Assembly (NCBI GenBank): GCA_000165425.1
Contig: CT867986.1
Location: 635,399-685,516 of the forward strand
Length of the DNA: 50,118 nt
Reading direction: 5' to 3'
DNA from: Paramecium tetraurelia
Lineage: Eukaryota
In this document: piece by piece, positions 1,147-39,492 of the stretch
Numbering within the stretch: the first letter of the stretch is position 1
Layout: each line of letters starts with the position of its first letter
Made by a program: the position numbers and the translations under genes
Notes under the pieces: model-generated
What the model was told of the DNA's origin: nothing
The model's input: the letters and a program-made list of their open reading frames with translations, nothing else
Databases searched by the model: none

Positions 1147-2630
1147 ATGGATGAGAAAATTAAAGATTCTTTTTTTGATGATCCTGAAACTACCACCTTC
1201 TGGATTAATAGTAGTCTACCCAGTTAAGATTAAATTTTACATTTGCAAGATTCTATGTACATCTAAAAAGATTAAGAGTTTCACAAATGCACCTTAGGTA
1301 TTTAGTATCATAACTTACTTTATTTTAAACAATAAGTAAATTGTAAACAATAACTAATAGACTGTTTAAAAATGGGTTAATTTGAACAATTCTACAATGG
1401 AATACATCAAACATTAAACTGCAGGAGTGGGAATTAGAATTTCAAAACATAAACAATACTTCGAATTCTTCGGAGATGTTGAACCTTGGTATAATTATTT
1501 GAGATAATACTGTGTATAAAGAAATTTTTCCTAAAGTTACACTTTGTTAAAGAAGATAGGACAAGGAAATTTTGCAGAAGTAAATAATTTTCTTATTGTA
1601 GGTTTACAAGGCAACTAACAAATTGGATGGAGCTGAATATGCCATCAAATGCTTCAGAAAGAGTAAATTGAAGGAGAAAATTGATAGATTATCAATGATC
1701 AAAGAAATATCAATCATGAAGAAAATGTAACATGAGTCTGTCATTAAATTATACGAGGTTTATGAAGGACCGGAGTGTTTGTACTTGGTTTTGGAATATT
1801 TGAGAGGTGGAGAAATTTATTAGTATATCAAGAAGTCACATCCCTTTTCAGAAGAGAAATGCTAAAAATTAATCTATAGAATATTGAAAGCGGTTCATTC
1901 AATACATGAAAAGGGAGTATTACATAGAGATCTCAAACCTGAAAATATTATGCTAAGAAACAAAGATGATCTTGATAATATTTGCATTGGAGATTTTGGA
2001 TTGGCCGATTATTATTCTCCAAATGGTTAATATCTTTTTACTCGCTGTGGAACTCCAGGATATGTTGCCCCAGAATTATTATAAGATAAGCTCTATGATT
2101 ATAAAGTTGATATCTACAGCGTTGGAATACTCATGTTTATTTTGATTGCAGGTAAGTCACCATTCGATGGAAAAGACTATGACGATGTTGTGTTGAGAAA
2201 CTACTATGCTAAAGTTAAATTTGAAGATTGTAAATTAAGCGAGGTTGGCATGAATCTCTTAAAAGGTTTAATGAACAAAAACCCAATCGAAAGATTAAGT
2301 GCTGAAGATGCTTTAAATCATCAATGGTTTGTAAAAGAAAATTCAAATAAATGTTCTTAATTTAAAATTCGGAAATAGAACTATGTTCTTAAGAAATTGA
2401 CTCATGGTGAATTATAAATCAAAAAGAGTTCTACTCTTTCTACATAGTTTAGCCCTTAAAGTTCAATATCAAGTCTCAGTCCTTATGGAATAACCAAATA
2501 CAATCTGGATGATAGTCCAAAAAGTCCTAACACTCCAAATGCATTGCATCCCAGCTTAGCATCCAAAAGTACTGGAATGGCTTAATTAAGACCAGTTCGA
2601 CGTTCTTAATTTACTTTAAAATAAATATGA
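1147..2630 (+). CDS. Ser/Thr protein kinase, CAMK-like, with N-terminal PH-like region; canonical catalytic motifs
   Basis: [23 protein letters not shown] (1992-2000), [12 protein letters not shown]. Introns 1336-1360 (25 nt) and 1580-1601 (22 nt). TGA at 2628-2630. Confidence 0.92.
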
Positions 2631-3318
2631 TTTTAATAAAATTTATTGTTTAGAACAATCATATAATTTGTTAATAGAAATTCTTCAATAGTAAATTTAT
2701 TATAAATCTCTCCCGAAGATAAGATAAATTAGAGAGGGTTTTAATAATAACCAAAGATGAATATCATAATTAATGGAGATAATACTATTAAGAAAGTTTA
2801 AGATAAATTGAACATCACACTCAGATAAAATTAGATAGAGTCATATCTTATATTCCACTTAAACTTCAAATTTATAATAAAATCTAATTAAAGATATTAA
2901 AGAACAGTTATAAAAATATTCAAATTGATTATGTGATTCTGAGCATAATTTTAAGTAATATAAATAAATTTACTTATTAGTTCAATTAGAAATGTTATCT
3001 GAGTAATAAAAAGTCTTTAGGTTTATCAGCATTTGAAGAGAATACAAGAAAAAGGATTAAAAGTAAGATAATACAAGTGAACACTTATAAAATAGTAAAT
3101 ATAGGCAATATCCACCTAACAAGTTCTACATTACCCTTCATTATTATTTTGAACCCTCTAATATAAATTTTAGTCATTTTTTATTCAACTTATAAACACA
3201 ATTTTAAATATTTAACTAAATTTAACTTAAATGTTATCAAGAGATCATTGAGTTTTGGTATTTTATTAGAAATCTATATGAGTCAGCCCAAAAGAATAAC
3301 AATATAAAAATTCAATGA

Positions 3319-4418
3319 TCATGCTTCACTCTTTAATCTTTTTTCTTTTCCTTCACACCAATAGCTTTCATTTTAAACTCCATTTTTATCAATAAGGATT
3401 CCCTTCCCATGTTATTTTCCATCCCTAAATTCTCCTTTATAGATTGTTCCATCTGCCCATATGAATTCTCCTTCGCCATGTTTCAGATCAAAACAGTAGT
3501 ATCCCTTATACTCTCGTCCATCTGGCCAAATAAAATGACCCTTTCCATGCATTTTAAAATCCTTAAATTAACCTTTGTAGTTTCTGCCATCTTAGAATTT
3601 CAACTCTCCAAACCCTGTAATTGAATCATTTTCTAATTATCCTGTATAAATATCTCCATTGGCAAACTTGACTCTTCCCTATCCTTACTTCTTTCCTTAA
3701 AAGAAAGACCCTTCGTATTCTTAACCATCAACCAGAATTTCCCTTCCTTATCCATGCTAATAATTAGTTATCATTTACTTTTTAATCCTATAACCATTCT
3801 CCTTCATATCTAGATCCATCAAAGTCATAAAAGACTCCATAACCATTCGACATATTGTTTTTCCAATCACCCTCATATGCATTACCATTGGAGTGTATAA
3901 TTCTCCCTCTCCCATTTGCTTAATCAAACTTCCAATAACCCTCATAGATTGATCCATCAGCAAAATATTATTTCCCTCTACCATGTCTTAACCTGGATAA
4001 CCACTAACCAACATATATATTGCCTTAATTTCTTTTGTGTTCCTAAAATTACGCTTTAATAATCTACATGTGCAACAAAGAATCTACACTCATTAAATTC
4101 TTAAGGAAGCTTTTTATCGAATTTGAATTTCCCAAGCTTATTTTAGGTGATTAAAACATTTTATTCAATATGTTTAGGTTCTTTGCTCTAAAACCAAGTA
4201 TCACCTGGTCTCTCTTTCTCAGCTTCTTCCTTAATCTACGCTGCAACATTTTTTGCCTTCTTCTTTCTCATTGAAGATTAAATTTTGACAATTTCTTCTC
4301 GATACTCTTCAAAGTTGATTTGTTGTGGAACTAAAGTGGGCATCACAATTGGTTCAAATTGTCTATATTCTAAATTCTAGATCTCTCCTCCTTATTATTA
4401 TGAACAGCAAGTGCCCAT
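3319..4418 (-). CDS. MORN-repeat protein with N-terminal MGTCCS acylation motif and IQ-like motif
   Basis: Repeated Y.G.W..G..HG.G units (e.g. DGSRYEGEWLQDQKHGQG, DGRNYKGQFKDFKMHGKG) and IVKIQSSMRKKKAK. Removing introns 4043-4067 and 3757-3778 gives 351 codons. Confidence 0.9.
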
Positions 4419-5091
4419 GAATAATTATTTATATTAATAAATAAAGAATGGCAATGATACTTTATTTTATGTCATCCATCATTTGCTCATAAAATTACTT
4501 AGTAATATTAATATTATGTCTAACGTCACAATTACCCTTTCTTGTTTAATAGGATCTCAGAATGAGGAGTTTAAATTAATTATTAATCTACATTTTCTGC
4601 TTAACGTTGTTAACTTTGTTTACTATGCTAATTTTAAGTTCAATTTTATTCTGAAAATGGGAATTTTTTATTATTTTATCAACCCATCTCGTCGCTTTCT
4701 AAACAAATATGTCTTCCAATCATTTTGCACTTTCAATGCGTATGCCTTAATGGTTTTTTGAATTCTAAAATGGATGAATTATCAGTATCATATTCACAAT
4801 ATTTTAGATATAATAGAACCCTTCAAGGTATAAATGTTCTTATACTTAATTATTTTTATATTTTAAGATATTATCTTGGTATTTTATTTAGACTCAAAAC
4901 AAATCATCTATGATATTATTTCATTTTTGTGTAAATAATTTATTCATTGCAATAATAAATATTTGAAATTGAGAATATCATTCAAATATCTTTCAGCTTG
5001 CAAAATCATCACATTAGTTGATCAATATATTTGCTATAAAATAATTTTAAACATAGAGATTAATTAAATATTAAATTAATAATAAATCAAG

Positions 5092-6576
5092 TCACAAGTC
5101 ATTTTACTTAAATACTTTATTTATTAATTTTAACTTGTTTTTTTTCTTAATTGTATTAAGATGGCTGGTGAGGAGACATTAGGATTTGGGACTTGATGAG
5201 AGACTTTTTTCAGCAGAAGTAGAAGCATCTCGATTTATAGGTGGAAGTTTAACTGAATTATCTGAATTATCTAATTTTTCTCTTTCTGATTAACATGGAA
5301 CAAATTTGCTCATTCTTCTAGGAAGTTAGGGAAATTATTATTTAGAGACAAAATTTTAAGAATTTCTTGGTTTTTGGAGAATTCTAAATATATCCAAACC
5401 CAATATCTTTTCACAAGTCAAAAATTCGGTTTATATTTTGTGTTTGTCTGTAAAAATCATTTCAAAAAATCTTTAAAGTGGAAGTGATAATTCCATATAC
5501 TCTGTTTGAGTAATATATTGAAAATTCTTCATTAATAGTTCATCCACCACTTAATTCAAGTTATATACTTTTTTTGTAAAAACTGTCAACAAAATAGTAC
5601 TCAAGGAATATATGTCCCTTTTTATACACAGATTAACAATCCTTTCTTAATCTTAGTGATTATTTTAATTAAGACTGCAATTTTTTGAAGGTATTTGCAT
5701 AGCCTTTCCATAATTTATAAAACAGGCAGTTTTTAAATCTTATGGATCTCTAAGTAAGATGTTATCATATCTAATATCATTGTGATAAATATTATTTTTG
5801 TGAAGTGCATATAAACTATTGAAAAGAGAATGCATGAATTTAATCATTTCTTATTCTTTGAAGTGATTATTTAGAATCTCTTCTTTTATGGTGCCTCCTT
5901 CTAATAATTCAGTAATTATATATATGTTTTATTCTCCTTCATGAATTTCTTCTAATTTTAACAAATTATCATGATCTATTTATCTTAAGATACTTATCTC
6001 GTTCAAAAAGTAATCCTTCTCAAACTTACTGCATCTTGCTAGTACTGATTTTTTTACTATTTTAGCAGCAAACATCTACCCACTTATGCTATGCTGAATT
6101 TTATAGACCTAATGATAAATTACAAATTTTACAGATGATAAATTGCCACTACCAATTTTTTCTATTATTTGATATTTCTTTTAAAACTCTGATTAGATCA
6201 CATATTTCTTAATATTTTCTATTAATTCTAAGCTCGTCCCATAAAATTCAGCTTGTTGACCATTTTTACTTATTCTAAAACCAAATTACTAATTTTTTTA
6301 ATTCATGACAACTCTCAGATAAGCATTTTGAATGTGAATAAACTTAGCAGATTTCTAATTAATATTATGAGATTCAAATACTTCTTCAACGATTTTCAGA
6401 TAATCTTCTGCCCATAGAACATTTATCTAGGTAACCCTGTTGATATATTTCATTTGAAAACTTCCTTGATCATGAAATTGCAAATTTTCATTCACTAATT
6501 GCATAAATAGATGGTTTCCATCATTAAAAAATGTAGCTTTAGAATGATCAGATTGATATCCTCCATTTTGTTTCAT
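5092..6576 (-). CDS. CAMK-like kinase paralogue, probable pseudokinase (HND, NYG in place of DFG, no APE)
   Basis: IGSGNLSSVYKI, FAAK, IYHNDIRYDNILL, CFINYGK. Same N-terminal architecture as the kinase at 1147-2630. Two short GT-AG introns. Confidence 0.85.
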
Positions 6577-7600
6577 TAAAATATAATTAATTTGGATTCT
6601 ATCGGCAGTAATACGCTAAATACGATAAAATTAATAAATTTATATCAATGCAGCAATTATTTCTTAATTTAACCAAAATTTGTATCTAAACATCTCAGTA
6701 TAAATCAATATTTTATACATACCTATTATTACTGGTATTCTGATAATAATTATAAAATTGATCAAATAAATATGTATTATTTAAAACTGAATTATGATTA
6801 ATTCAGAATTATTAAAAAATATATCTGAAACTATTAAGGTGAAATTTAAGTAATTTTTATATAATTTTAGTAATCCTCTTTGAAGAATTTAGCATCAAAT
6901 TTATAAATTAATATATGAAGTAAAAGAATTAATATAAGATTAAAATCACTATATTTTGAAGTACATTGGTGATCAATAAACTCATATTGTTAAGTGAAGC
7001 TTAGAGTAAATATCTTTAAACCTAATGTGTAATTGAAACTCTTTATATGGCTTTTTTATGTCTAAACAAATTTTTTTCATAAAAAAGAGATTTTATTGAA
7101 TAATTCTATAATCTGTTATCAATTTATTATTTTAATTATCAAAAGAATATGCTATAGAGTCTCTGATATTAGACAACTACTTTGAGTAATATCTTCTATT
7201 CTTAACCTAACATTTAGAGTTATAATTGGACAATAAAATAATTTAATTTTCAATCTTGTTGAGAATTGACAAATTGATCAGTTTTGTAGTATTTTTACTT
7301 TACAGATAATAAGATTAGATTTATATATTTTGTATTCATTTTTTTTTTGTTCTCACTTTTTTATCTTAAATATTGAAATAATTAAACGGAAAATTTTCAA
7401 TTGAGACCAAAAATAACAATAAATATATGATTTATCTAAATTTTTTTATTTTGTCATATATCGATCCAAGTTCTATTGTATATTTGTATTAACCATTTAT
7501 TAAGTATTATCTTCTATTGTAATAAAATAATAATAAAACAGGAGTGTGATAATATATAGTTTTCAAAAAAGGATATAAATACAAAATAAATTATAAATAA

Positions 7601-9056
7601 TCAGTTGAATTAAAGTCTGTTAGTAAAACGATTACTATCAGATTAATGTTTTTAATTAGTTAACATTGTTTTAGATTGTTATCTAGGGGTTTAAGAAATT
7701 AAATTGTATTTTTTTTATGAAATTTAGGATAATTGGGGATTGGTTTCTTCAATGTTGGTTCTCTTACCTGATGTCAATTATTATGTATTCAAATGAGGTA
7801 CTGTTTATTTAGTAGTGAGACTATATAGGATGGGCTATTGTGTGATTGTCTGATCATAGGTATAACCATTAAATTAATCCTAAATTGATTGTCTTCTTAA
7901 CAATTATCCGTTCAATAAGTTAGACTCATAATCTTCATCTTCTTTCATATTTGCAAATTTGGCATCAAAATTATCATTGTTAATCTAAATATTTATTATA
8001 GAAATACATTTATGGAGTATTGTGGGGTAGCTGATTAATTCATATGACTATTCCAATCAATATCTCTAAACCATGGATGTGATTACACTTCCTCAGGACC
8101 ATTAAATCCTAGTCTATTCACAGGTTTCCTTTGCAAAGTTCTGTTGATAAAATCTGCTGCTTCTTCTGACCATCCTTTCGGTATCTAATTCAATTTAACC
8201 AAGACCTATTTAGCCAATATTTGATCTCTAATTTCTTTTCTAGTCTTCCCTAAGTATGGTCTCTACATACTCAGAATTTAATTACTTTTCCCATCATACA
8301 TTCGTAAGCTATGACTCCAACAGCAAAATAATCAGAAGCTACTCCATGAGCTTGTCGACACATAACTTCTGGAGCCATATAGCCAGGAGTTCCACTAGTG
8401 TCGTTGTCGTTGTCAGGTTTCCAAATTCTGGCTATGCCCAAATCTGTTAACCGTAAATAACCTATTAATCTTTAATATATTTTCATACCATTTCTATCAA
8501 ACACTAGGTTTTCTGGTTTAATATCTCTGTGCAATACTGTGTTAGTATGCAAATAATCCAATGCTAACAACAAACACACTATAAAAAATTCTTTTAAATA
8601 TTAGTTAATCTATACTTGTCTATTTTTCATCGAACTTTCTTTGTTTGCATAGATGATACCTTAGGTCACCACCTTGCATCAAATCCATTACTAAATATAA
8701 ATTTTCTCTGTCTTAAAACGCTGTATGCATATTTACTAAAAACCTAATTAGTGTAATTTTCTTACGGATGCCGTAAATTACTTAATAAATATCTTTCATT
8801 CATGACTGAACTAACACTTTTCTTATTAATTATCCTAATAATCCTAGTATATCTTTACTTGCATTTGTTCATTTCTTTGATTGCAAACTATTATTTCGAC
8901 TTTTTATTCTCAGCCTTCCAAACTCTTCCAAAACCACCTCTGCCAATAACAAAAAGCAATGCAAAATCAGCCTTACAAGGCACTAATGAAATTATTAGAT
9001 TAATTACACAAAGCATCATCAAAATTTACATCTTTGCTGTTATTACAATTTCCCAT
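7601..9056 (-). CDS. AGC-family Ser/Thr protein kinase with N-terminal MGNC motif
   Basis: IGRGGFGRVW, FAIKEM, HRDIKPEN, LTDLGIAR, TSGTPGYMAPE, RLGFNGPEEVQSHPWFRDIDW. Several 21-27 nt introns. Confidence 0.92.
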
Positions 9057-9301
9057 TTTTATAATTATAATATATACTTTAGAAAAAATTTAGAAAAATT
9101 ATTTATTTAAATAATAGATCTATAAATCGAGAATAAGCAATTATTTAAATTGATATAACCATTACGAGGAGATTCTGTATTTTATCATTTGAGATTCCAA
9201 AAAAAGGTTCAAAAATGCAAAAATAAATCATTTGGGTAATTATAAGATCGAATTTCATACAAATTTGATTATTTAAGTGATTAAATTATTTTTTTTTTAA
9301 T

Positions 9302-12300
9302 ATGATACTTGAATATGCTGTAATATATTTATCGATCAATAGCTAAATGAAGAGGATGATTATAAACGAATGACTAATATTACGAGAGGATGTTAATAAT
9401 TAGCATAATAATTGCCTTTTTATTCTAACTTTACAAACTCAAATCTAATTAGACAATGTAAATAAATTTTTTACTATTTGAGTATTTTGTTGTTATCCTT
9501 TTTAACAAGAGCCTGTAAAATTATTATTGTCAATAATGATGGACAGATTTCAAAATGTTGAATTTTTGAATAGTTTTTATAAAGGGTTACTAGAAATAGC
9601 ATTGCTTTAAGAATAGAAGGCAATGTTGAGCAGTAGATCGCCTGGGAGAGGCAGAAAAAGTTTTTCAAAGTACTTGAGCTATGATATTAGGAATATAAAA
9701 TGGATAGTAAGGCTTGGCAAAAAATGTTATTGAAAATCTAGTAATTTCCAAACAATTTGCAGTTTCATTTTTAAAGCCAATGTTCCTACTGGTGCAACAA
9801 CTAAGGTAGTCTCTAGAGAGTAGAAGTGGAATCTTCATGACCTTTATTTTTAATACCAGGGACGAATAAGTAATAAAATTGGTTGTGGACAATTTTGAAG
9901 AGTGTAAAAGTGAGATCTTTGGAGCATGTACTTGGGTAAACAGAATTGATGAATAGATAGTTTAATGTAAATAGAAATATCAGTTTTAGTTTTTTATTCA
10001 AATTAAATAATAAGGTCTTCAAACATTATTTAAGTGGATTAAGACGGTGTTGATGAACAATAAGAATCTTCTGAATCTTCAATTGAAATAGATCCAAATG
10101 AGGAAATATAAAAATGGATTTGTTAGAAGAACACACCTATGGTTAATGAATAATTAGATTACTTTCGAAGTTTTGAATATTTGGACTTAATTTTCAAATA
10201 TATGTTTGATCCTTGTCATTTCAGTGCAATACATGAATGGGTAAGTAATTGAATTTTCTATTTTTTAGGAACATCATTATGATGATATTTAAATCAAGCA
10301 CACTTAAAATTCAAGGAAATTAAATTAAAATAAAGATATAGATAAATTATTATTACTTCGCTCATTGAAGACTATAAAAATACTTATGCATGAAAACAAT
10401 TACCCAATCATTACTAAACTTGTACCTTAATTTCTATTTAAATTATGTATCTTATTTTTACTTATAATTAAGTTCATTATATTTACGATTCCTTAAATGA
10501 TTATGAAAGAAACATTGATTTAAATTAGATTGCATTTATCTTAGACTTTCTATTACAGACAAATCCTAGACAATCGATATTGATGATAGTAGAATTTAAT
10601 TTGATGTTTCAATTGGTTTCCATGATATATAATGAAAATATAGCCATGCTTGTATAGAGTATTGATTTATGATTATCATTAAGAAATAATCTCAGATGAA
10701 TATGATATGGGGAATTATGTGTTTGATCATCTTTGGTAATACTTAGATTGCACAAATTGGATTCAATATTTCCTAAGCATTGCCTTAACATTGTAAGTTG
10801 ATACATTCAGAGCAAATAAAAATAATCAAAGCGATAAAACAGTTTAAATCATAGGTTTATTAAAACAATAGATAAATTATGACAGATTAATTCATTAAGA
10901 AGAAATAAATGTGGACGAAAAGAAGTTGTTAACAGATTACTTAGGTTAATTACAAGCAGGAAAGAACTACATTTAGTTTTACAGTATGAATCAACTTAAT
11001 TGGCATATGAACTAAAATGTTAAAGAGAATATAACAGTAAGTGAACTATTGGGTAAGGATGTAGACAACTTAATGCAATTCAGAACAGAGAGACAGATGT
11101 ATTAATCAAAAGTTTAAATGTCAATAAGAGAAAAACTGTTTGTTCCTCAAATGACATAATAAGAAACAAAGTTTATTAGAGGAAATAGTAAAAGATAAAT
11201 AAAGGAAACTTTACAATAGAGGGAATTGACTAATAAATAAATTGCTCAAACTGTAAAATAATTGCCAAGGTTGACTATTGGAAATTAAGAGTTATCAAAA
11301 TGGATTAATGCAGGAAAGAATCAGATTAATCTTAGTGTTGCAATGTCTCCAAAGAGAACACCAAGAAGCTTTCAAATTAAAACTGAATAGAGCACTGATT
11401 TTTCTTCATTCTATGAAGGTTTTTCAAGTGGAAGACTAAAAGGATTGTATCCCAGTCCTAAGATCTCGATTTAATCTAGTAGTTTTGAAAGAAAAGCCAA
11501 AAAATTTCAATCAGATGTTAAACTTCTACCAAGTTGTATATCTATTTTAAAGTAGATAATACAGAGCATCTTCTAAAACATGATGAGTCTTACCTCATAG
11601 AATAAAAAATAAGCATAACGATTAAAAATTGAATAGGACAGCATTTTACCATCCTTTTTAAACAAGGAAATGTTGAGTTAATTATTCAGAGTTTATTTAT
11701 ATGACATCAATAATTAGGATAAAACGATATCAGATGCATCTTGTGAGTGTGGTTTGATTATAAATGAAATTTATTTAAATTGCAAATAGCATTCAGAACT
11801 TCACTAATATAAATCTCTTTTAAAGTCTTGTTTTTATGAAATTGGGGATTATATTTGTAAGGTTATAGTCAAATTGCATGATTCCGAATAACCATCAAAA
11901 TTTAAGAGGCATTTGCTAACATCTACACTACAAGAAGGTTTGATCCTATTTGGGGAATAATAAGACACTCCTAAGAATATATTTGGTATCTTAAATGAGA
12001 CTGCCCTACATTTACTGATAATTTGGTTCTTTGATAGCGATCAAGCTAATACCTACTAGTAAACATTTGTGAAGTATTTACATTTATTAATTTAAGGTTA
12101 TTTACGATAATATTTTCAAGAGCCCCTTAGTATTTGCTGGGGATAATCCTTTTTAAACTTGGATTGATTAGTTCTTTGTAAAATGCTTACTTTAATTTCT
12201 TCATAAACAGTGTAAAATTTACAACTGGAGCTGAAAGTCTTTTTTATTATGTTAGTGTAATGATATACGCCATTAAACGTTCTTTGCTAACTAGGAAGAC

Positions 12301-35094: not shown

Positions 35095-36572
35095 TCAATT
35101 GCTTTATATTAGTTTTGAAGATCCTCCAGTCCTATTATGTGTTAAAATGGGGAAATCTCCATAGCGCTTATTCCTTGGTTAGTAAATATATTATGAATGA
35201 CCCTCTGGATTTCTATTGCTACTCTAAGAATATGACTATGCTGCATTGGCCAAATTTTCTTAAACCTAAATCTTGTCTATAGATTTTCTATCTTATGGAG
35301 ATCTACAAATTGGACAAATCTTTTATAAATAAATTAACTTACTAAATTTTATTTCATCCATTTATCAAAACATTTATAATGATAAACATGCATGCAGTAT
35401 GTGACTCTAACAAATTGTTCATATTTAAAAGAATCTAAACAAATCTAACATTCAATTTAATCCTTTATTTAAGGGGATTTTCTTAAAAGACTCTAATATT
35501 CGACAGCAGGAATTAAGTGAGTCCAGTCAAAAGAACTCTCAAATATCTTTAAGTTCTTAGAAAGATTTCCAATATTGTTGGCATTATTTGTTTATTATGT
35601 TTTCTCGAGTCTGAGTCTGTAACATTTAAAAATGCAAATCACAAAGCAGCATAAGCAAATAGCCCCAGTTGATACTACAGTTATGATAATAGTTTTGAAA
35701 TGGTCTACCTCTTCCTTTTAGTAGTATTGAATGTATAAAAAACCGACTGAATATTATTAGACTATAATATAATGCTGAGCCTTGGAAGATGATGTACTAG
35801 CCAATTGACATTTCATAATTTCTTCCGCAGATATTTTTATACTAGCTGATTCCTCAACTTCGGCTTTTCTTAAATAAGGATTTTCCATAAAACATTAATG
35901 ACTAACCTTTCCTGAGTTTTTAAATTCTAAAGAGAAGTCAGAACTTCCAATCTTCATTACATCAAGATAATAAAATTTATCTTTTTCTAGATAATCCTAT
36001 ATCAAAATATCAAATCCTTGATACTCACAATCATAACCGAAATACCCTTCAAGACAAATGCAAGTATGTTAAATACAGTATCCATTGTTCTTGCATAAAC
36101 TCTGATTAAAATAAATAATACCTTAAGCAATCATCTTGCAATTTTGAGTTTATTGATATGTTTATAGAATCACTATATTTTGAAAATATGCCGACATAAA
36201 GACTTACACTTTTTGAAAATTTGGTATTAGTAGAGTATGAATTATAGTTCTTTTCAGAATCTCTTATCAACATTAATTTTTACGAGGTTTCAGTAAATTC
36301 GAAAGCATTCCAATCACATATGCATTAAAAACTTCATATAATTAAGAATACTTTTAATCAACATAGATCTCAGTTAAACTTGTAAAGTTTGGTGTTGTTT
36401 CACAAATCATTAAAATGCTTACTTATTTTTCGCTAAAGTTTGCTTCAAATACTACATTATCATAATTATTATTGAGTATGTTTAATTATTGAAGTCCAAA
36501 GGTGCCTTATTAAATCCATTTTTCTGTGCATATTCCAAAATGGATTATTAATAAAAGAAGGTTATAGCTCAT
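35095..36572 (-). CDS. Type I membrane protein with signal peptide, EGF-like domain, TM helix and cytosolic RING-H2 (putative E3 ligase)
   Basis: MSYNLLLLIIHFGIC; CKNNGYCIQHTCICLEGYFGYDCE; IITVVSTGAICLCCFVICIF; CQICLDSF...TYCMHVYHYKCFDKWMKQNLICPICR. Confidence 0.88.
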
Positions 36573-36758
36573 TTTTGAGAATATTATGTTAAGATTTTAT
36601 AAACTAATTTTCATTAATTTTACAAGAACAAATTATCAAAATAGCTTAAAAGCAAAGAAGACACAATTTGAAACACATAATATAGAAATAATTTATATAT
36701 ACATATGATTTTATAGTTTTACAAAAGAACATTCTTTCTATATGATAAACAATTTTAA

Positions 36759-38729
36759 TCAAATAAGCAAAATTGTCATCTAATTTATTATGCCTTCTTA
36801 TGTTCCAAATAACCCAGATATGCTAATAATATAATCTCCTTGTTTAATCCATCCTTTCTATTTAAAATTTTCCAATATTCTAGGAGTTAATCTTAAATTT
36901 AATTGATTTTTCTTACTATTCAATTCCAACTAAGCTTCCAACCAAAAATGGAATCACACCATTTACTATATTGAGATTTCTTGCAATTGTTTTCTTTGCT
37001 GTTACTGCAACTATAGGACAAGGAGCATGCAATTTTGATAAACTTAAGGCTGTTTCTCCTGTAGTAAACAGTAATATCAGTTTCACACGCAGACTAATTA
37101 AATTCAATAATACCTGTAGGCATTCTCAATTGCATTTTAAGCTATAATGGAAGCTATGGGATTCTCTTAAATTTTAATTTAAAATAATCCCTGATATTAC
37201 AATCTGGTGTGCATTTCTATATTTGTGCTAATTCTCGCTAAAGCTTACACAACCTTAATAGGGTGATTTCCATAAGTAGTTTCTCCAGATAACATAATAC
37301 CATCAATATGTTATTCGACCACATCTGCAATATCTCCCATTTCGGCAAATGTAGGATTTGTCTAAGTAAGCATTGATTCCAAAATTTATGTTGAAATTAA
37401 AACCTAATTAATTAAAATACTACTGGTTTAACAAGTTTTCTGCAGTTTAATATCATATCGTGTTACATTTATACAACGTCCTCAATTTATGCCCAAGTTG
37501 CCAAATAAGCTCTAGCAATTATACAACCATCTGCAATTTCCATTATTTTATCAAAATTATTTATCCCTTCCTATGTTGTTATTCTAACAAAGATCTGAAT
37601 ATTGGTTGAAGAACCCAACAAGTGTTTTAACTATTTATAAGATATTAGAAAACTTCATGCACTTCTTCAGGTCTACTTACATTTGACAATGTAATAGAAT
37701 CAAAATCTAATCTTTTTGCTATTGTGAAATCATTTATGTCTTTAGAAGTAATCTAGGTTTCAATCTCTTCATCAGAATCATCCGACTGTTTTATAATCTA
37801 TTTTTATTCTTTAGACCTATTTGTAATAAATAATGGTTTAAATGGTCTCATTAAACCTTGAATTAGAGCATATTTTTACAATTTTATTCGATTTCACAAA
37901 TGAAAACTATTAAACTTTTTGTAGCAAGCTTTTGCTTTTTATTTTAAATGATTTAATCAATATATTTTTGTTTTTTGGATTACAATTGTGTTGACGAAGC
38001 TCCTCTTGAATTTTCACTGGATAAAGAACTTTTAGACTACAATTTACTTTTTTCGGATTTATCTTACTCAAATATACTATTTTTAAACATGGCTTCTGTG
38101 GGGTACAAATCTGGATATTTTTCCATTAAAATCTATTTAGCCCTTTTTAATTCCTTTATAATTTTACTCCTAATCTGTTTCTAAAGCTTTGATATTTAAC
38201 ACGATTTAGCCATAATCAATGAATATTTGATCTCCAACCTTTGCTTAAGTAAAAAGTTCATCTTAATCTACGCAAATGATGTTTTCATCACCAATCACTT
38301 TATTGTCTTAAGTAATTCTTATGATATTTCCTTTCTATTCTCTAAGAATAATGACTATACCTTTAGGTATATTTCTGGCTATCTTAAATGACCTATTCTA
38401 GTTATCTTTCCTTAAAGCATCATATTAATTGGGATTGTATGATCTAGTTCTTACTCCAATTAGTCTCTGATCATTTTTAATTTCTCATATTATCTTCTGT
38501 CATGAGTGTAAGCTGTGTTTATACTAATATAATTATGTCTAATAAGAACAAACCTGAGTGCATTAGCTCCTGCTTTTAACATTTCTCTTATTATATCGAT
38601 CTCACATGTTTTTTCATTTATAGAGCAGACTATTTTCGTTCTTCTTTAATGATGTGGTTCATGTTATTCATCCTTTAAGATATTTTCCCTGGATCGAATT
38701 GGCGTTAAATTAGAAAGCCTTGAATTCAT
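36759..38729 (-). CDS. Pyruvate kinase-like protein with substituted catalytic residues (probable pseudoenzyme)
   Basis: RRTKIVCSI, GDQIFIDYG, ADGCIIARAYLA, KPVLISTQILESM, PTFAEMGDIAD, DGIMLSGETTYGNHP, FTTGETALSLSK. The frame is intact across multiple tiny introns. Confidence 0.9.
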
Positions 38730-38742
38730 TAAAATAAATATT

Positions 38743-38790
38743 ATATTATGGATTAAAAGGGAGATGATATTATGGATTAAAAGGGAGATG
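38743..38790 (+). repeat. Perfect 24-nt tandem duplication spanning the PEX19 start codon
   Basis: atattatggattaaaagggagatg occurs at 38743-38766 and again at 38767-38790. Confidence 0.95.
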
Positions 38791-39492
38791 ATCTTCTGGA
38801 TGATATTGCTGATGCCCTTGATGGAGAGCACAAGCTTAACCTAACAGCTGATCAAAATGATGATGAAGGGTAATTAAAACTATATCAGGGAGATGAGGCA
38901 ATAAATAAGGAAGCCGTAAATTTTCTAAATTCTTTAAAGGGGGGAGAAGGCTAAAATGTAAGAAACCGATTAATTGGCTCAAACAGTTTCAAGGGATGAG
39001 TGGGAAATATTCCTAGAAGGAATCAATCTCGACCACAACTACGTAGCTTCAAATAATTTATTAATAGGGAATAATAAAAGGCATTTTAAGACACCTTCGA
39101 AAAACTCGAATAAGCTCCATAATTTGATGAATTAGCTGATAAAATGTTATTGTAATTTATGGATAAAGAAGTTTTGGAGCAACCGATGAAAGAAACTTAT
39201 GAAGCTTATAGCAAATTTATTTAAGTATTAATGATTAATTTCTAAGGAAAATAAAAATAAATTGAGTGAAGAAGAATTATTGAAATACAAGAAATAAAAA
39301 GACTGTGTGGAGAAAATAATTGATCAATTAAATAATAATCCTAACGACAAGGAAAAATTAATTTAATTATTTGAAAACATGTAGGCTGAAGGAGATCCTC
39401 CTTAAGAAGTATTTGGAGGAAATGAAAATCCGTTAAACTTTTTGAATGCACCAACTGATGGAGCCTAAGGTGAACCATGCAGTATATTTTGA
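38748..39492 (+). CDS. PEX19: Peroxisomal biogenesis factor 19
   Basis: N-terminal DDLLDDIADALD Pex3-binding-like motif; MLLQFMDKEVLEQPMKE, LSEEELLKYKKQ, FENMQAEGDPPQE; C-terminal CaaX CSIF*. Confidence 0.88.

Follow-up and report, generated by a model that had tools for sequence, protein, structure and literature searches.

A locus on the minus strand of a 50,118-nucleotide stretch of Paramecium tetraurelia contig CT867986.1 (the window) raises the question of what a full-length pyruvate kinase (PK) gene encodes when its catalytic residues have been replaced: a divergent enzyme, a decaying pseudogene or a protein retained for another role. An initial annotation made from the sequence alone reported that the catalytic Lys, Glu and Asp were lost, and read the gene as an inactive PK kept for a regulatory, hetero-oligomeric or structural role.

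The window is AT-rich (GC 0.23-0.33) and uses the ciliate genetic code. The gene was modelled under that code by an intron-permitting, gap-free alignment of the window minus strand to P0001, a 592-aa protein of P. octaurelia, which gave nine exons, eight GT-AG introns of 20-30 nt and 592 codons, with an ATG at 38729, a stop ending at 36759, no internal TGA and three amino acid differences from P0001 (Table 1). The protein cluster of this closest relative contains six named Paramecium proteins, including the P. tetraurelia record of the window gene itself, P0005 (700 aa). P0005 is identical to our model across residues 1-549 and then misses intron 8 and reads through it, so its C-terminus is wrong; the function implied by its "pyruvate kinase" label is probably wrong as well. 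The full-length, stop-free gene first described is thus recovered as 592 codons with introns that are spliced in RNA, and the motifs IFVRITT (37594-37574) and ARAYLA (37516-37499) lie in the spliced model exactly where they had been placed.

Table 1. Features of the PK-like gene and of its degenerate paralogues; positions are those of the window unless a contig is given, and residue numbers in the remarks are those of PKM.
Feature	Position	Strand	Basis or remark
PK-fold pseudoenzyme candidate gene, 592 aa	36759..38729	-	Spliced model, RNA contig and stranded reads, Pfam
Nine exons	38729-38554, 38523-38361, 38334-38168, 38142-37880, 37856-37654, 37630-37424, 37403-37114, 37093-36917, 36891-36759	-	
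Intron 1, 30 nt	38524..38553	-	In frame, stop-free; spliced in X18 contig; position and phase as in L002, L003
Intron 2, 26 nt	38335..38360	-	Model, RNA, paralogue comparison
Intron 3, 25 nt	38143..38167	-	Model, RNA, paralogue comparison
Intron 4, 23 nt	37857..37879	-	Sole intron absent from L002/L003
Intron 5, 23 nt	37631..37653	-	Model, RNA, paralogue comparison
Intron 6, 20 nt	37404..37423	-	Unspliced in X18 contig; X24 read-depth dip
Intron 7, 20 nt	37094..37113	-	X18 contig and 3 junction reads in X24
Intron 8, 25 nt	36892..36916	-	X18 contig and 4 junction reads in X24
SINE for TIGP	38613..38624	-	T50, G52, P53 replaced
SINTAYT for R[LM]NFSHG	38505..38555	-	R73, S77, H78 replaced, N75 kept; interrupted by intron 1
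MLQGKITR for DTKGPEIR	38397..38420	-	K+ site D113, T114, E118 replaced; R120 kept as R101
S/K/Q-rich lid (B) domain insertion, ~80 aa, residues 167-245	37914..38175	-	Coordinates derived from exon list
FKPLF for KKGVN	37828..37842	-	K207 kept as K263
IFVRITT for IISKIEN	37574..37594	-	K270 to Arg, E272 to Thr
ARAYLA for ARGDLG	37499..37516	-	G295 to Ala, D296 to Tyr; R294 kept
STQILESM	37394-37371	-	Spliced model
PTFAE for PTRAE	37341..37355	-	R342 is Phe
MLSGETTYG	37269..37295	-	S362, E364 kept; position 367 aromatic
L002	G000:C666:246982-250260		Second degenerate subfamily, 509 aa, 7 introns
L003	G000:C14:230052-233327		Second degenerate subfamily, 509 aa, 7 introns

Expression, which had been left to an RNA check, was confirmed as spliced transcripts of the correct strand. 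In the oligo-dT run X24, 198 reads fell on 36680-38735, all of them oriented as minus-strand RNA; mean depth per bin over the gene was 0-14 with dips at the introns, and junction reads crossed introns 7 and 8. In X18, taken as an RNA run by guess, a single 1855-nt contig spans 36698-38724; seven introns, 172 nt in all, are precisely absent from it, and the remaining one, intron 6, is retained. Retention of intron 6 brings in a stop at codon 500 (at 37085). The X24 bin over intron 6 has a depth of 2.5 between flanks of 10.3 and 11.4; because this dip resembles that at intron 7, intron 6 is probably spliced in most molecules of X24. Seven introns are seen spliced directly and intron 6 indirectly. 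The X18 contig, with intron 6 retained and the other seven introns spliced, is a possible case of regulated unproductive splicing. Retention of intron 1 would bring back an Arg close to position 73 but was ruled out, as this intron is spliced in RNA and in the paralogues. Unspliced DNA of the gene is present in runs X8 and X16, runs X17 and X19 gave no contig, and the sampled-word share of the RNA-like runs (0.76-0.80) is too coarse to serve as evidence next to the values expected for eight (0.775) or seven (0.80) spliced introns. Expression is modest, since a neighbouring gene has a depth of 48-118 in X24, about ten times that of the PK-like mRNA.

The truncation caused by intron 6 in one RNA contig, together with the absence from the genome of a same-age duplicate of the window gene, could be taken to mean that the locus is a decaying pseudogene or that the gene model is wrong. 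We consider this extremely improbable. The reading frame is free of stops and frameshifts, seven introns are seen spliced, and five orthologous proteins of the same 592-aa length are 99.5, 96.3, 99.0, 95.6 and 91.7% identical to the window protein. These orthologues span three other species of the P. aurelia group, and because of their identity the gene is no decaying pseudogene. Among the six proteins of the subfamily 520 of 592 positions are invariant. The substitutions themselves are conserved, as the initial annotation had asked of sister species: they are common to all six subfamily proteins and, largely, to P. bursaria. As for the dN/dS ratio for which it had also asked, a sister pair of degenerate genes, L002 and L003, gave a value far below 1 (dN 0.033, dS 0.67, dN/dS 0.050, bootstrap 0.032-0.069); this pair is a proxy for the window gene, on which selection is read from protein identity only. 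The two canonical PK genes of the genome gave a dN of 0.022, a dS of 0.73 and a dN/dS of 0.030. If P0006 is a same-age duplicate, as we infer, its 8% divergence would imply similar constraint. The features of a pseudogene (stops, frameshifts, neutral evolution, absence of transcripts) were not found, and those of a pseudoenzyme were, namely a homologous fold without the catalytic residues, an intact gene with spliced mRNA, and purifying selection judged by the sister-pair dN/dS and by protein identity.

The protein is predicted to have a PK fold with A, B and C domains, in the same order as in PK (EC 2.7.1.40; PF00224 and PF02887; PKM, E. coli PykF, Leishmania PYK). P0001, 99.5% identical to the window protein, scored 174.5 bits for the PK family and 69.5 bits for PK_C in Pfam (cut-offs 30 and 28). 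A structure model had a mean pLDDT of 77.7 and a pTM of 0.75, being confident over the core and low at residues 1-26, 203-218 and 270-289, and all matches listed by a fold search with this model were PKs (best E 8e-44). The S/K/Q-rich insertion noticed at first in the lid domain is present, with S, K and Q making up 47% of residues 167-245; its size comes to about 80 aa, not the approximately 75 aa first given. At the lid position the protein has 92 residues as against 12 in canonical PKs, mostly helical in the model at low to moderate confidence, and a second insertion of ~15 aa follows (30 residues as against 15).

Residues were numbered as in PKM, calibrated on the 531-residue chain, and compared with 18 canonical PKs, of which two belong to this genome and 16 were found by searches; rows past about PKM 435 were unreliable, the numbering reference P0264 having an aberrant end, and were left unused. 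The window protein is ~27% identical to the genome's own canonical PKs and keeps 44 of the 81 columns that are invariant in at least 17 of the 18. The replaced residues include P53, R73, S77, H78, D113, K115, E118, D178, K270, E272, G295, D296, E300 and R342, which in established PK biochemistry bind PEP, divalent and monovalent cations and nucleotide. In alignments to solved PKM and bacterial PKs the catalytic Lys, Glu and Asp are Arg (a conservative change), Thr and Tyr, as had been reported; the equivalence of SINE to TIGP and of SINTAYT to RLNFSHG was read from alignments of the same kind, and the structural motifs TQILESM and MLSGET were found retained, at 37394-37371 and from 37295. The losses go beyond those first listed, extending to D113, E118, D178 and the cross-subunit R342. 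At the phosphate, nucleotide and K+ site, R73, S77, H78 and D113 have become Ser, Ala, Tyr and Met, with N75 alone kept; the change of R73 to Ser follows from the removal of intron 1. The available text of two docking papers places the replaced residues along the PK cleft. According to accessible parts of the structural literature, R342 crosses the large interface to R294/G295 of the neighbouring subunit (PMC3467265; also PMC11957543, PMC5719368), and mutation of its equivalent in Leishmania PK, Arg310, abolished activity (PMC3467265).

Without the two carboxylates for the enzyme-bound divalent ion, the K+ site and the Arg that binds phosphate, phosphoryl transfer would be lost, and on these alignments the window protein is predicted to be catalytically inactive. 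None of the residue sets used as marks of an active PK is intact (K270/E272, G295/D296, R73/S77/H78/D113, cross-subunit R342). Like PK, the protein keeps R120, K207, R294, T328, S362, E364 and T432; unlike PK, its PEP, divalent-metal, K+ and adenine-pocket residues are replaced, R342 is Phe and the lid carries the large insertion. That it is a divergent PK which still works is very improbable, although Pfam scores above cut-off, the pyruvate kinase label in UniRef and retention of R120, K207, R294, T328 and S362 would favour this reading. Against it, E272, D296, D113, S77 and H78 are present in all 18 canonical PKs and absent from every row that covers them in the degenerate clade described below, and PK activity is supplied by two complete canonical genes. 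Very probably the protein is dead as an enzyme and functional. The initial reading of an inactive PK kept for a role is supported; the inactivity itself and the type of role we infer.

Searches of the genome (72.1 Mb, 697 contigs) by protein and by Pfam profile agreed on at least five PK loci. Two are canonical with all motifs kept (L004, L005) and three are degenerate (the window gene, L002 and L003), which, together with the clade that they belong to, is what is new here. L002 and L003 are 93% identical to each other and degenerate in the same motifs as the window gene; the public model of L002, P0126, lacks the N-terminus. With P. bursaria P0007 they make up a second degenerate subfamily that has the losses of the window protein and is its sister group (99/97), differing in its 37-40% identity, a short lid insertion (31 residues) and a more changed C-domain phosphate loop. 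All seven introns of L002/L003 lie at the same column and phase as in the window gene, whereas none of the five canonical gene introns does.

Among 275 fetched proteins, K, E and GD were intact in 257 and not in 18. A tree of 37 rows picked from an 80-row first tree was built under a site-mixture model, with P0154, a shorter sequence clustering with P0284, omitted. Nine degenerate rows formed one clade (support 98/97), with long-branch attraction a risk, in the order Paramecium rows (99/97), then P0244, then P0213, recorded as Furgasonia blochmanni, then P0128 with P0284. Derived features agree with the clade, namely a lid insertion at the same position, Pro at 208 and aromatics at 78, 178 and 367. 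The insertion is found in all seven full-length rows (31-92 residues as against 12), and the aromatics in every lineage covering them (five of five at H78 and at D178, seven of seven at position 367). Over the 81 columns, 19 are kept and 17 lost in all seven lineages; the polar residues kept throughout are R120, K207, D238, D288, R294, K322, S333, E364, E386 and T432. R120 and K207 are counted here in the five reliably aligned lineages, P0213 and P0244 being N-terminally incomplete and the R120/K207 matches of P0213 possible alignment artefacts, and R294, whose backbone pairs with R342 of a neighbouring subunit, is kept in nine of nine rows. The deepest-branching pair, P0128 and P0284, retains R342 and G295 within an otherwise dead site. 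An AU test rejected a single clade of the degenerate rows and the Paramecium canonical PKs (p 0.028), for a group with long branches that was named after the tree was seen.

The degenerate clade is older than the window gene; to call it ciliate-wide rests on two named genera, Furgasonia and Paramecium, whose evolutionary distance is taken as general background. No named match from Tetrahymena, Stentor or spirotrichs was found among the best 120-150 of 1,603-10,477, which is not evidence of absence. A profile search from eight degenerate proteins gave P0001, P0007 and canonical-looking PKs in its best 120 of 1603, and scans of metagenome contigs returned 152 (P0001) and 91 (P0128) pattern matches with no confirmed relative. 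Six other degenerate sequences (P0127, P0144, P0151, P0220, P0261 and P0275) fall elsewhere in the tree, so PKs that look dead seem to have several origins. P0127 (1280 aa), outside the ciliate clade, carries a tandem pair of PK-like domains, neither with D296, and one more domain after them; P0261, P0220, P0144, P0151 and P0275 have changes in the KIE or GD motif and are scattered.

The cleft was compared at 23 positions, using a list that we take to represent it and in which R120 and K207 are presumed contacts to ATP phosphates. At these positions acidic, basic and aromatic residues number 6-7, 6-7 and 0 in canonical PKs, and two, four and five in the window protein. These changes suggest a pocket for a metal-free anion. 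Gain of a different catalytic activity is decidedly unlikely. It would account for a cleft that is invariant in the subfamily at 22 of 23 positions and identical to P. bursaria at 17 of 23, compared with 142 of 334 overall, and the protein still has T328, S362, N75 and, at 270, an Arg; the metal ligands are gone, however, and since T328 is lost in two of seven lineages and position 270 varies (R, K, G), the lineages show no new catalytic set in common.

A stand-alone sensor or scaffold is possible, if somewhat doubtful, and is the close rival of the damping role considered below. Such a protein would form oligomers of its own or together with the second degenerate subfamily and would use the rebuilt cleft, or else its C domain, to bind without metal an anionic ligand, either a nucleotide or a sugar phosphate; the lid insertion would pass the signal on to other proteins. 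The de-acidified cleft fits this proposal, as do the aromatics at H78, D178 and position 367 and the common lid insertion; T432 of the C-domain phosphate loop is likewise kept in seven of seven lineages, K207 is found in just two of six unrelated degenerate PK domains, and the joint loss of R342 and G295 in Paramecium fits pairing between dead subunits. On the other hand, R120 is kept in five of the six unrelated domains and may be structural, the aromatics could merely fill the cleft, and the cleft list and the ATP-phosphate roles of R120 and K207 are presumed. Derived cleft residues were more often identical to P0007 than other derived residues (9/15 vs 67/207, p 0.03), but a matched control gave p 0.11, and their conservation was not significant in comparisons with L002, L003, P0128 and P0284.

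Our tentative choice among the roles is a non-catalytic subunit that joins active PK oligomers and damps them. The window protein, lacking phosphoryl transfer, would still oligomerise; where it sat beside an active subunit, the Phe at its position 342 would leave that neighbour without the cross-subunit contact that it needs. Flux from PEP to pyruvate would then fall, in a cell for which gluconeogenesis has been proposed, and the effect would be tuned by the cleft with its reduced acidity, by the C-domain site or by the lid insertion. This choice was made because the interface segment is best conserved, R294 is invariant and Phe at 342 would withhold the contact. The segment bearing the large-interface helices is identical to P0006 at 102 of 104 positions, to P. 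bursaria P0007 at 56 and to canonical L004 at 40. In mammalian PK, a substitution in the R342 motif is reportedly dominant-negative. The choice also rests on physiology: in its available text a preprint proposes that ciliates favour gluconeogenesis, with PK cytosolic (bioRxiv 10.1101/2025.04.24.650466), and Bacillus gluconeogenesis is described as requiring PK to be off in the accessible part of PMC11834443.

Several results weigh on the damping proposal. Retention of R342 and G295 in the dead site of P0128 and P0284 fits an effect on the neighbouring subunit; since R342 is thus kept in two of seven lineages, a brake by its loss cannot have been the original role of the clade. Several positions of the large interface that do not vary among canonical PKs differ here (K311, N350, A351, D354, G355, G295), and may cause a misfit with an active partner. 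The AU rejection may mean that the window gene is not a duplicate of the enzyme to be regulated, and the low mRNA depth in X24 also counts against damping. A two-copy complex prediction for P0001 residues 12-470 scored 0.29 and 0.23 against a mark of 0.32, in a run with the alignment unused and without controls, and so weighs neither for nor against oligomerisation. As far as its accessible text goes, the preprint numbers Paramecium PKs up to PK5 and calls none inactive, and PK4 and PK5 lie outside the main cytosolic cluster (bioRxiv 10.1101/2025.04.24.650466); should these be the degenerate copies, they may be kept apart from the active enzyme.

The location of these two PKs would also suit a structural role in some unrelated complex of the cortex, cilium or organelle surface, with the PK fold used as a brick and no link to glycolysis. 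Strong sequence conservation without catalytic residues and the predicted helical lid insertion are consistent with this reading, as is, in the available text, the testis restriction of predicted dead fly paralogues (PMC11836677). It is quite unlikely nonetheless, given the low mRNA depth and the lack of a PK-like subunit of such a complex in the best 60 of 101 solved-structure sequence matches or the listed fold matches.

Dead paralogues of metabolic enzymes are a known kind; none has been characterised in the PK family in the literature searched. That search found predicted dead PKs in Drosophila only and gave no account of catalytically dead PKs in ciliates, with subscription journals mostly outside its scope, and a search on the accession numbers of the gene gave no related paper. 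The accessible part of a 2023 PK database paper knows no homologue without canonical activity (PMC10176505); a conserved clade of predicted dead PKs in a tractable ciliate offers a testable case. Drosophila Pyk-like paralogues, whose "like" suffix denotes predicted pseudoenzymes, stand as divergent copies beside one canonical gene, much as in Paramecium, but by the available text of these papers they arose within insects and are testis-biased, unlike the Paramecium copies (PMC11836677, PMC10755183). Independence of the fly and ciliate cases is read from the papers' placement of the fly copies in an insect clade, our own trees having held no fly sequence; the top Atlas look-alike of the window protein was an arthropod-rich "pyruvate kinase-like" cluster (score 0.94). 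Trypanosomatid prozymes of deoxyhypusine synthase and AdoMet decarboxylase offer a protist precedent of a dead paralogue beside an active one (PMC3663545, PMC5201418), in which, as the accessible text has it, a dead paralogue regulates an oligomeric metabolic enzyme (PMC3663545). An active paralogue in the same genome is found here too (L004, L005). In the prozymes, judged by the same partial texts, the hetero-oligomer is proven and activating, whereas for the window protein binding is proposed and the sequence hints at inhibition, a difference that counts against damping.

With three of the five genes counted as PK predicted dead, the reading of Paramecium metabolism changes, and the result bears on the oddly located PK4 and PK5 of the preprint and on the restraint of cytosolic PK under gluconeogenesis. 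The most extended account would join an ancient, separate ciliate family of dead PKs (three genes to two active ones in Paramecium) with an active site rebuilt as a metal-free anionic-ligand pocket, setting the switch between glycolysis and gluconeogenesis by entering and braking active PK tetramers; we regard this combination as unlikely in its entirety.

The genes on either side of the locus were also inspected. A Pex19-like gene (PF04614, E 2e-11) lies head to head with the PK-like gene at 38748-39492 on the plus strand and is matched only once in the genome, which gives no evidence of synteny with L002/L003. Its reading frame is broken in the window, and RNA reads lack single bases at 38960 (112/154), 38976 (123/135), 39000 (40/40) and 39010 (40/40), likely assembly errors or a strain difference. 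Its first ATG (38748) and the PK-like start codon (38729) are 18 bases apart. The segment 38730-38792 contains an exact 24-base tandem duplication, at 38745 and 38769, with many RNA ends at 38750 and 38759, and represents a very compact bidirectional promoter unless the duplication arose in assembly. The downstream neighbour, at about 35300-36270 on the minus strand, encodes an EGF-like RING-finger protein that is probably membrane-anchored.
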